Shown piece after piece: positions 18,977 to 23,018 of a stretch of DNA of 23,114 bases. The stretch is taken from NCBI RefSeq assembly GCF_000008565.1, contig NC_001263.1, forward strand, positions 974,445 to 997,558, read 5' to 3'. Within the stretch, counting starts at the first letter, position 1. Every line of letters begins with the position of its first letter. The notes below the pieces were generated by a model. It did not search any database, was not told where the DNA came from, and worked only from the letters and a program-made list of their open reading frames with translations. Made by a program: the position numbers and the translations under genes. The stretch comes from Deinococcus radiodurans R1 = ATCC 13939 = DSM 20539. GTDB taxonomy: Bacteria; Deinococcota; Deinococci; Deinococcales; Deinococcaceae.

Positions 18977-20292
<1,316 letters not shown>

Positions 20293-20308
<16 letters not shown>

Positions 20309-20458
20309 TTGAACCTCACACGACTAAAGTCGCGTGATTCTCACTTCGCAGACCATTGCCCGCCGAAGCAGGTCTGACATAGCCTCCATGAGCGTTTAAG
20401 GTGTCTGAGATTCCCGCAGCCACCAACGCTTCACGCCGAATGTTCAGCGCAGCGTTCT
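20293..20458 (-). ncRNA. TnpB-associated omega RNA / reRNA: roughly 150-nt scaffold overlapping the tnpB 3' end and right end, plus a 16-nt guide from flanking DNA
   Basis: The minus strand reads ...GAATCTCAGACACCTTAAACGCTCATGGAGGCTATGTCAGACCTGCTTCGGCGGGCAATGGTCTGCGAAGTGAGAATCACGCGACTTTAGTCGTGTGAGGTTCAA|GCTCATGCGGTGGCCT. Visible helices are CAGACC/GGTCTG enclosing CCTGC-TTCG-GCGGG, and CACGCGAC-TTTA-GTCGTGTG. This matches my recollection of the ISDra2 scaffold. The 5' end is uncertain and could extend to about 20540. Confidence 0.8.
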
Positions 20459-21542
20459 CGTCTCGGTCATGGGTTTCCCCACAGTTCGGGCAAGTCCATG
20501 TACGGACGGCAAGATTCTTCACTTCGGGATTCTTGAATCCGCAGTCATGACACAACTGGCTAGATGGAAAGTAGGGGCTGACTTTAGATACCAGTCGCCC
20601 GTACCACGCTGCCTTGTATTCCAACTGCCGGATGAACTCACCCCAGCCCGCATCACTGATGCTCAGTGCAAGGCGGCGATTTTTCCGCATGTTGTCGGGT
20701 TTAAGGTGTTCGGTTCCGATGATTTCGTACTCACGCACCAGGGAGGTGGTGAGCTTGTGAAGGAAATCCTGACGCTTATTGACAATGCGCTTGTGAATCC
20801 GAGCCAGCTTGGTTTTCGCTTTCCCGTAACGTGCGCTGCCCTTCTTCCGTCTGGACAGGGTTTGCTGAGCTTTACGAAGTCTTTTCAGGGTGGAGCGGTA
20901 ATATTTCGGATTCTGTTCATGCTTAAACCTCACGCCATCGGTCACGATGGCAAAATCCTTGATGCCGACATCCACACCCGCTGCAAACTTGGGAGCCGCA
21001 GGCAGGTAGGGAATCTCGACTTCACAGAGAACGGACGCTTCGTAATGGCCTTCGTGAATACGGCGCACAGTGACATTCAGAATCTTCCCTTGAATATCCT
21101 GCTGGCCCTTGGTTTTCACCCATCCCAGCTTAGGAAGTTTGAGCCTACCTTCCCCAATTTGGATGTTGTTGTTGGTGAATTGAGTCCGGTAGGACTCTCC
21201 CGTGCGCTTCTTTCTGAAACGTGGGAATCCTACCTTTTTACCGGACTGCTTCACAGTCCGAAAGAAGTTCTTGTACGCGGTCTCAAGGTTTTTCAGCGAG
21301 TTCTGCAAAGCAAACTTATCTACTTCCGAGAGCCAGGAGGTTTCTTCAGCCTGCTTCAGAAGGGTCAGTTCGCTACTCGTTTGCCCGTAGGTCAGTCCCT
21401 TCCCGCTTTCCTTGTAGGCCGCAATGCGACGGGCAAGGAAGTGGTTGTAGACGAACCTTGCGCTACCCAGCGTGCGGTTAATCAGTTCAGTCTGAGCCGC
21501 ATTTGGGTACAGCCTGACCACGAAAGCCTTATTCCTTATCAT
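20316..21542 (-). CDS. tnpB: TnpB, RuvC-like RNA-guided DNA endonuclease (OMEGA / Cas12 ancestor)
   Basis: 408 aa. The RuvC triad is D191 ([11 protein letters not shown]), E278 (IIGTEHLK) and D361 ([12 protein letters not shown]). A zinc finger is formed by CHDC(331-334)...CPNC(351-354). The sequence matches ISDra2 TnpB as I remember it. Confidence 0.98.
20317..20336 (-). repeat. Right-end subterminal hairpin (TnpA recognition element as DNA; 3' stem of the omega RNA)
   Basis: Minus-strand CACGCGAC-TTTA-GTCGTGTG forms 8 bp with one G-T pair. It lies 7 nt from the element end (GGTTCAA). Confidence 0.75.
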
Positions 21543-21951
21543 GCTGGCTCTCTATGTATTTCTGAATCTGAGCGCGGGTGTTTTCAGAAACAGTCAGGAT
21601 GCAATACGACGGGTTCCAGAGATTGCCGCCCCACAGCTTTTCTTTCAACTGCGGGTAGGCCACGAACATCCGACGTGCGGAAGCGCCTTTCAGCGCCTTC
21701 ACGAAGTCGGGGATGGCTTGCTGTGGGGTTGCGCTTAGCAGGAGGTGAACGTGGTCAGGCATGACTTCCATCGTGATGACTTCCAGCCCGTTCTGAGCGG
21801 CAATGTCACGCAGGATGTCTTTCAGTCCATCAGCAACCTCACCCACCAACACCTGATGACGGTATTTCACGCACCAGATGAGGTGGTATTCAAGCTGATA
21901 GACGTAACCCCGGCCTTTCTTCATCTCAAGGGGAAGAATAACATATGTCAT
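21529..21951 (-). CDS. tnpA: IS200/IS605 HUH single-strand DNA transposase (Y1)
   Basis: 140 aa with the HUH motif H67-V-H69 (MPDHVHLLL) and the catalytic Tyr in the C-terminal helix (QKYIESQ, Y132). Confidence 0.97.
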
Positions 21952-21980
21952 CTGGAAAAGCTAGAGGCTTCCGCTTTTCA

Positions 21981-21998
21981 TCGCCCTTTTCAGGGCGA
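21981..21998 (-). repeat. Left-end subterminal hairpin
   Basis: Minus-strand TCGCCC-TGAAAA-GGGCGA forms a 6-bp perfect stem. It sits between the element tip (22044) and the tnpA start (21951). Confidence 0.7.
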
Positions 21999-22044
21999 GA
22001 GGGGCTAACTCATGACTGAAGTCACGAGTGTGCGCCCCTCAAGC

Positions 22045-23018
<974 letters not shown>

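Follow-up and report, generated by a model that had tools for sequence, protein, structure and literature searches.

Guide RNAs of ISDra2 and related systems

The insertion sequence (IS) ISDra2 of Deinococcus radiodurans encodes TnpB, a nuclease guided by an RNA that the transposon itself provides. Karvelis 2021 purified TnpB together with an RNA of ~150 nucleotides (nt), the right-end element RNA (reRNA) or omega RNA, which corresponds to the tnpB 3′ end plus the right end (RE) of the element; its last ~16 nt, derived from the flank, direct TnpB to cut double-stranded DNA beside TTGAT (PMC8612924). Nakagawa 2023 solved the TnpB–omega RNA structure by cryo-electron microscopy (cryo-EM) and numbered the scaffold from −1 to −231 (PMC10097598). 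Here we analyse positions 20293–20458, on the minus strand, of a 23,114-nt stretch of the D. radiodurans R1 genome (NC_001263.1, positions 974,445–997,558), referred to as the window. A preliminary description of this DNA had flagged the interval as a structured RNA overlapping the 3′ end of tnpB, with its guide read from the neighbouring gene pckA. Almost certainly, the interval encodes the omega RNA of ISDra2, which guides the transposon's own nuclease TnpB; this omega RNA is the published molecule itself in its native genome, not a relative of it, and is already known.

The reRNA is heterogeneous in length, with 100–160 nt reported, and a 116-nt scaffold is reported as necessary and sufficient (PMC11844463). 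Residues −231 to −117 are disordered, a cut falls between −117U and −116G, and Trim1 is active; stem 3b is also disordered and is dispensable (Trim2) (PMC10097598). The strand of tnpB is the one transcribed into the RNA, whose production is ascribed to 5′ processing of the tnpB transcript (PMC10097598; 10.64898/2026.09.09.750255), with self-processing of tnpB mRNA described in the latter report. Transcription, processing and TnpB binding were shown in Escherichia coli for the identical scaffold (PMC8612924, PMC10097598).

The ISDra2 omega RNA is the founding transposon-encoded guide RNA, through which TnpB, the ancestor of Cas12, was shown to be RNA-guided. The ISDra2 TnpB–omega RNA complex now serves as a hypercompact genome editor. 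The Cas12f single-guide RNA (a joined trans-activating CRISPR RNA and CRISPR RNA) and other Cas12 guides carry a like pseudoknot directly 5′ of the guide, and stem 4 of the omega RNA resembles the repeat:anti-repeat stem of Cas12f, with recognition by WED and RuvC common to both (PMC10097598). Unlike Cas12 guides, the omega RNA is one natural transcript lying inside a nuclease gene and transposon end, with no CRISPR array, and its guide is fixed by the flanking DNA, whereas a CRISPR guide is acquired as a spacer. The IscB omega RNA and the sense-overlapping transcripts of archaeal IS1341 elements are likewise transposon-encoded guides or 3′-end RNAs of the tnpB type (PMC10097598); compared by description, the IscB omega RNA differs in lying upstream of iscB and in having a 5′ guide. 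The palindromes of IS200/IS605 elements, such as the TnpA substrates of IS608 and ISDra2, are a further point of comparison, as stem 4 is the top-strand RE hairpin bound by TnpA. That role of the palindrome is a DNA role, whereas the RNA role needs 90 nt more upstream.

Identity of the element and its RNA

Positions 20309–22044 (minus strand) comprise a complete IS200/IS605 element, ISDra2, of 1,736 bp. Its identity was established from the PDB, from contigs encoding the same protein and from the literature; the scan for relatives gave no D. radiodurans locus. The encoded TnpB is 100% identical across all 408 amino acids to the chains of PDB entries 8BF8, 8EX9, 8EXA and 8H1J. These chains are titled ‘RNA-guided DNA endonuclease TnpB’ and come from D. 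radiodurans ISDra2. The ISDra2 copies in CP150840.1, CP031500.1 and CP050116.1 have the same 1,736 bp base for base. The TnpA substrates of Pasternak 2010 were a 59-mer for the left end (LE) and a 63-mer for the RE, the RE part being the terminal 43 nt of the top strand (PMC2806898). These oligonucleotides contain exactly the LE and the last 43 nt of the RE found in the window (20351–20309), so that the window sequence equals the RE 43-mer and the LE 39-mer. In D. radiodurans R1 (genome-1999/BAA-816 type), this copy is DR_0979-DR_0978.

Placing scaffold nucleotide −n at window position 20308+n brought all 35 of the nucleotides named in PMC10097598 into agreement (35/35), along with the codon overlaps given there (residue 376 at −109, and −10U as the first base of the stop codon). 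Comparison of the window with the published sequence of the ISDra2 reRNA gave no mismatch. Because the named nucleotides and the codon overlaps all agree, the flagged feature is the published reRNA. The scaffold (20424–20309) overlaps tnpB codons 373–408, the stop codon and a further 7 nt, on the same strand as tnpB. An RNA that is encoded on this strand and overlaps both the RE and the 3′ end of tnpB, as the preliminary description had proposed, has been shown experimentally for the identical sequence (PMC8612924, PMC10097598), and the scaffold/guide boundary that it placed proved exact, with the scaffold ending in GGUUCAA and the guide starting at 20308.

The locus displays every feature of an ISDra2-type TnpB omega RNA that sequence can reveal: strand and overlap, an intact TnpB, the scaffold, the fold, the guide and the transposon-associated motif (TAM). 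Compared with the published ISDra2 reRNA (PMC8612924, PMC10097598; PDB 8H1J, 8EXA, 8BF8), it has the same protein, element, scaffold, RE boundary, TAM and guide position. The guide alone differs, because the insertion site sets the guide: here it is antisense to pckA, whereas the published RNAs carry guides from another flank or engineered guides. Recovering the RNA from its native genome brings no new knowledge, and is useful as a positive control for reading a sequence without other data; such reading recovered the boundary, the guide and the triple-use hairpin, and covariation then sorted the right helices from the wrong ones. Only two points are specific to this locus, namely that the guide targets the intact pckA of IS-free laboratory strains perfectly and that both ends of the known 6-kb deletion lie at TTGAT.

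Architecture and conservation of the scaffold

All parts of the RNA lie on the minus strand. The scaffold core of 116 nt (−1 to −116; 20309–20424), defined by the cryo-EM mapping and by covariation, comprises stems 1–4, a triple helix and a pseudoknot. Beyond it, the 5′ extension (−117 to −231; 20425–20539) is part of the published 247-nt constructs, is processed off and is dispensable (PMC10097598). The 5′ limit of the flagged interval, 20458 (−150), is inside the reported length range of the reRNA, but the functional core starts only at −116, position 20424. Stem 1 (20400–20424) pairs −116 to −109 with −99 to −92 and carries the pseudoknot GAA in its loop (−105 to −103; 20413–20411). UUAAAC (−91 to −86; 20394–20399) joins stem 1 as the third strand of its triple helix (PMC10097598). 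Stem 2 pairs CUCA (−84 to −81; 20389–20392) with UGAG (−35 to −32; 20343–20340), and stem 3a (20350–20385) pairs AGGCUAU (−77 to −71) with AUGGUCU (−48 to −42), enclosing stem 3b (−70 to −49), which contains the CCUGC-UUCG-GCGGG hairpin at 20372–20359. Stem 4, CACGCGAC-UUUA-GUCGUGUG (−28 to −9; 20317–20336), is also the imperfect palindrome of the RE; it encodes TnpB residues 404–408 and the two leading bases of the tnpB stop codon, UGA (20318–20316). The pseudoknot UUC (−5 to −3; 20311–20313) lies inside the 7-nt non-coding tail GGUUCAA (20315–20309). Stems 1, 2 and 3a are supported by cryo-EM and covariation, stem 3b by covariation, stem 4 by covariation and by identity with the TnpA substrate, and the pseudoknot by cryo-EM and, weakly, by covariation.

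Conservation of this fold was assessed on an alignment of tnpB 3′ ends, A1, comprising ISDra2 and nine relatives from other Deinococcus genomes (TnpBs 55–85% identical; 10 sequences). The cryo-EM structure is 97.3% paired on A1, as against 30–39% when the partners are slid by 1–3 columns, and 12 pairs show compensatory changes on both sides. None of 500 shuffles matched the observed percentage paired, the compensatory counts or the covariation score. Stems 1 and 2 are both 100% paired with two compensatory pairs each, rising to 6/7 and 3/4 pairs, respectively, in a wider set described below; the CUCA:UGAG of stem 2 becomes CCCG:CGGG in relatives L002 and L003 and CUCG:CGAG in L011. Stem 3a is 90% paired with four compensatory pairs and stem 3b 96% paired with two. 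Stem 4 is 100% paired, with two compensatory pairs (A-U to C-G and C-G to U-A), and its fourth pair is an invariant G.U. The pseudoknot pairs (GC, AU/GU and AU) are kept in 100% of the close relatives and are nearly invariant, giving weak covariation, and the AAAC of the triple-helix strand (columns 32–35) is invariant.

The preliminary description had drawn the fold differently, with a CAGACC/GGUCUG helix around the UUCG hairpin and a long-range UCUCA/UGAGA pairing. All the motifs that it quoted are present on the minus strand where it placed them (CAGACC 20376–20371, GGUCUG 20354–20349, UCUCA 20410–20406 and UGAGA 20343–20339, for these two helices), the segments are complementary in this sequence, and thermodynamic folding of the single sequence prefers local alternatives over the cryo-EM fold. 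In A1, however, CAGACC/GGUCUG is 61.8% paired, with all six pairs departing by unpaired cells alone, and UCUCA/UGAGA is 74% paired; neither shows a single compensatory change. The CAGACC and CCUGC helices, moreover, cannot both fully form, because two Cs are common to both (an overlap of 2 nt). The same 3′ strands pair at 90–100% with AGGCUAU and CUCA, with four and two compensatory pairs, and the pairings seen by cryo-EM are those of stem 3a, stem 2 and the pseudoknot (PMC10097598). It is therefore very improbable that the native fold is the one built on CAGACC/GGUCUG and UCUCA/UGAGA. The earlier drawing had the 3′ strands GGUCU and UGAG right and their partners wrong, the native partners being AGGCU (stem 3a) and CUCA (stem 2), and it lacked stem 1, the triple helix there and the GAA:UUC pseudoknot. 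Covariation among the relatives bears out its UUCG hairpin (stem 3b) and its terminal UUUA hairpin (stem 4, the RE hairpin bound by TnpA in Pasternak 2010), both conserved, and fails to do so for the other two helices.

The description of the interval as structured is upheld by the conservation of the cryo-EM fold in relatives and by folding energy: the 166-nt interval has a minimum free energy (MFE) of −66.8 kcal/mol (z = −2.75), equalled by one of 200 shuffles. The single-sequence MFE fold did not reproduce the native fold, extending stem 4 by GAG...UUC and making local alternatives, and is therefore unusable for judging helices. It also contains a 5′ hairpin from −148 to −117 (within 20425–20458), which we rejected as functional RNA, as it is 71% paired in relatives and substitutions break its pairs; the lack of conservation agrees with the published dispensability of the 5′ part.

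A covariance model, R1, built from a 120-nt alignment of close Deinococcus relatives, matched along its full length, on the same strand as tnpB, the 3′ ends of tnpB genes outside the training set, whose TnpBs are 30–57% identical. The matches were found in Sphaerochaeta (L009, 39 bits), Selenomonadaceae (L010, 31 bits), Levilactobacillus (L016, 24 bits) and Alicyclobacillaceae (L014, 23.5 bits; L015, 21.6 bits). In the wider set of 15 sequences, the structure is 95.4% paired and 25 of 34 pairs covary, on an alignment that was fitted to the model.

In one relative, Deinococcus marmoris (L006, 1266–1370), the scaffold lacks 15 nt, most of stem 3b. The loss mirrors in nature the truncation engineered in Trim2, an RNA that is more active.

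Coding, RNA and DNA constraints

The preliminary description assigned the sequence three roles, as protein-coding DNA, as a TnpA recognition hairpin and as an RNA scaffold. All three hold, with the qualification that coding is the weakest. Similarity to the nine relatives stops exactly at scaffold −1. Third-codon-position conservation rises from ~0.45 over the first 200 codons of tnpB to 0.69–0.77 over the last 36, while second-position conservation falls. In relatives L002, L003 and L007 (L002:4118-4237, L003:4112-4231 and L007:4187-4306), tnpB stops 11 codons sooner, within the segment directly 5′ of the 3′ strand of stem 2, and the nucleotides are still conserved up to the RE, so the last ~40 nt of the scaffold there are non-coding. 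The C-terminal 33 residues of TnpB (376–408) are disordered and dispensable (PMC10097598), and the codon-position and early-stop results fit that published dispensability.

Stem 4 has a clear counterpart in DNA. The RE hairpin (20336–20317) is subterminal on the top strand, 8 nt from the end of the element, and shares with the LE hairpin (22028–22009) the same stem pattern, including a G.T mismatch (G.U in the RNA) at the fourth pair that is invariant among close relatives. The stem-4 part of R1 also matches LE hairpins, at 22009–22028 in the window and in six relatives, and stem 4 is therefore a TnpA-type subterminal hairpin. One could suppose from this likeness to the LE, and from the fact that the region is coding in ISDra2, that the conserved pairings reflect constraint on DNA (the TnpA hairpin) and protein (tnpB coding) alone, without RNA function. 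Stems 1, 2, 3a and 3b and the pseudoknot covary, however, though the 43-nt TnpA substrate does not contain them or contains them only in part, and the coding explanation is countered by the dispensable C-terminus, which three relatives truncate while keeping the nucleotides. The RNA has also been purified, sequenced and visualised on TnpB (PMC8612924, PMC10097598), and published mutational scans contradict the expectation that mutations in stems 1–3 or the pseudoknot would be without effect on TnpB cleavage (PMC11844463). We give practically no credence to an explanation without RNA function.

Guide and target at pckA

The guide segment is the first 16 nt past the RE boundary (+1 to +16; 20293–20308, minus strand), and from the sequence we infer that the guide of this copy is GCUCAUGCGGUGGCCU. 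The preliminary description read this segment as antisense to pckA codons 439–444, and correctly so: GCUCAUGCGGUGGCCU occupies 20308–20293 and, with the pckA ATG at 18977, is antisense to the stretch from the third base of codon 439 to codon 444.

IS-free D. radiodurans genomes provide the corresponding empty site. In L029, L030, L031 and L033, intact pckA reads ...CGCATGAGC/ATCAAGCAC... (slash, junction), and its antisense strand reads TTGAT/GCTCATGCGGTGGCCT, where the guide is matched at 16/16 positions directly after TTGAT. The RE junction is therefore an original insertion junction. Exact guide matches in the window were confined to the flank itself, where the match is preceded by TTCAA; as this is RE sequence and not TTGAT, the occupied site would not be a target. 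Every ISDra2 copy examined has TTGAT directly before it, whereas the right flank differs from copy to copy, with four distinct flanks following identical right ends among the copies compared.

The TnpB complex cuts double-stranded DNA carrying TTGAT and then a guide match (PMC8612924, PMC10097598). Under the homing model, as set out in PMC10055086 and PMC10690162, TnpA would excise the element and leave a donor joint of TTGAT and guide match, a natural target of TnpB. A second natural target would be the intact pckA allele of IS-free strains, TTGAT/GCTCATGCGGTGGCCT. Once the target was cut, homologous repair templated by a genome copy with the IS would put the element back (homing, or peel-and-paste retention). 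By comparison with the IS-free genomes, GCUCAUGCGGUGGCCU is the empty-site sequence expected under this model.

A G stands right after TTGAT in all five distinct D. radiodurans ISDra2 sites (window 20308, the right-end flanks of L019, L020 and L022, and the gdh site in L029), which read GCTCAT, GAGTCC, GTGGTC, GTTTTG and GGTCAT. The engineered tetA site likewise has G after TTGAT, and the flanks of the relatives have no such bias. This may reflect an extended target or a preference for the first guide base, or chance in a small sample.

Expression of this copy

Several points weigh against the identification of the interval as an omega RNA gene. In the published work, the RNA was studied by expression in E. 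coli, from another copy or with engineered guides. A scan of the minus strand upstream of the RNA gave no sigma-70-like promoter, the scan being uninformative for Deinococcus; the missing promoter is compatible with processing from tnpB mRNA, and proves nothing. Rfam has no family that recognises the RNA, with zero gathering-level matches in the whole window, and no curated omega RNA model for the ISDra2 lineage is available there, so membership is not confirmed by any curated model. The covariation in stem 4 cannot separate constraint on RNA from constraint on the TnpA DNA hairpin. Finally, antisense pckA transcription converging on the RE could reduce the level of omega RNA.

This last point arises from the reading frame of pckA, which enters the RE for 22 codons (20309–20377, plus strand) and gives a 466-amino acid fusion open reading frame (ORF) with its stop codon at 20375–20377. 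As the frame runs into the RE, pckA transcription is convergent with, and antisense to, the omega RNA (−1 to −69), and it is possible that it modulates the guide RNA of this copy. The same 466-residue fusion ORF is called in several metagenome assemblies.

Taken further, the RNA gene at this locus might be effectively silent or non-functional, through convergent pckA transcription or through the deletion context; the fusion frame does place the pckA mRNA antisense to scaffold −1 to −69. Against this, the element is base-identical to a transpositionally active copy (the flanks of L019/L021 match the Pasternak oligonucleotides), the RNA from this locus can be loaded by TnpB from any identical copy, and the donor joint after excision would keep TTGAT and the guide match. 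We therefore consider a silent gene unlikely.

The pckA–gdh junctions and the 6-kb deletion

The LE adjoins gdh at codon 114 and the RE adjoins pckA codon 444. In IS-free strains, pckA has 535 codons, of which exactly 444 are kept here, and the two junctions are 6,054–6,066 bp apart (6,066 bp in L029, CP150840.1:980470-1001588). The element thus replaces pckA codons 445–535, a UCP032817-like ORF, a 44-amino acid ORF, acoA, acoB, a complete gdh and 113 codons of a second gdh. The size of the deletion came from the IS-free D. radiodurans genomes, the synteny of D. ficus being unhelpful for it. The locus DR_0977/DR_0979-DR_0978/DR_0980 of the 1999 R1 genome is a known ISDra2-associated 6-kb deletion (PMC11276467, PMC11219805).

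By comparison with L029, both ends of the deletion are TTGAT sites on the IS top strand, which speaks for two genuine target sites and against the ‘jump-over’ alternative left open in PMC11276467. Two insertions and then recombination could account for the use of both sites, as could an adjacent deletion mediated by TnpA.

A wider consequence would follow if TnpB with this RNA cut intact alleles, whether on other genome copies of the polyploid cell or on transformed DNA, and IS-templated repair then spread the IS together with the 6-kb deletion. We see a small chance that this happens. If it did, a homing nuclease with an RNA guide would drive not only the IS but also a deletion of metabolic genes (the 3′ end of pckA, acoA, acoB and one gdh) to spread.

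Downstream of the IS, the gdh fragment is the same as in IS-free strains for 954 nt, after which an indel shifts the register (from ~22999, compared with L029). This fits the DR_0980 frameshift difference described in PMC11219805. On the other side, the closest full-length pckA product was P0001, from a Logan assembly (531 amino acids), which is identical to the window protein over ~415 residues before diverging sharply; the assembly is probably chimeric, and P0001 was left unused.

Genes and ends of the element

The two genes of the element lie on the minus strand. One, tnpB (20316–21542), encodes the 408-residue RNA-guided nuclease that binds the omega RNA, identified by identity with the PDB chains and by the Pfam domains HTH_OrfB_IS605, OrfB_IS605 and Cas12f1-like_TNB. 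The other, tnpA (21529–21951), encodes a Y1 HUH transposase of 140 amino acids (Pfam Y1_Tnp, E = 2.3e-43). The LE (22009–22044, minus strand) contains the subterminal hairpin CUCGUGAC-UUCA-GUCAUGAG (22028–22009), which is supported by its DNA fold (z = −3.9), by the LE oligonucleotide of Pasternak 2010 and by its match to the stem-4 model. On the 5′ side of the LE and adjoining it, TTGAT (22045–22049, minus strand), within gdh, is the target site and TAM, as seen before all copies examined.

A weak likeness to the Transposase-2 RNA family RF03015 extends over the GAAGUGAGAA...hairpin segment (20300–20347, minus strand). Membership was rejected, as the match scored 15.7 bits against a gathering threshold of 42.7 (E = 1.2) and crosses the RE boundary into the guide. 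In another TnpB lineage, the RF03015 motif may form the 3′ portion of the omega RNAs.

Among the other ISDra2 copies, L022 has the left flank (the DctM side) in common with the copy in L019/L021 and a different right flank, in an SNF2-family gene. These flanks suggest a further IS-mediated rearrangement in strain GCA_965136095.1.

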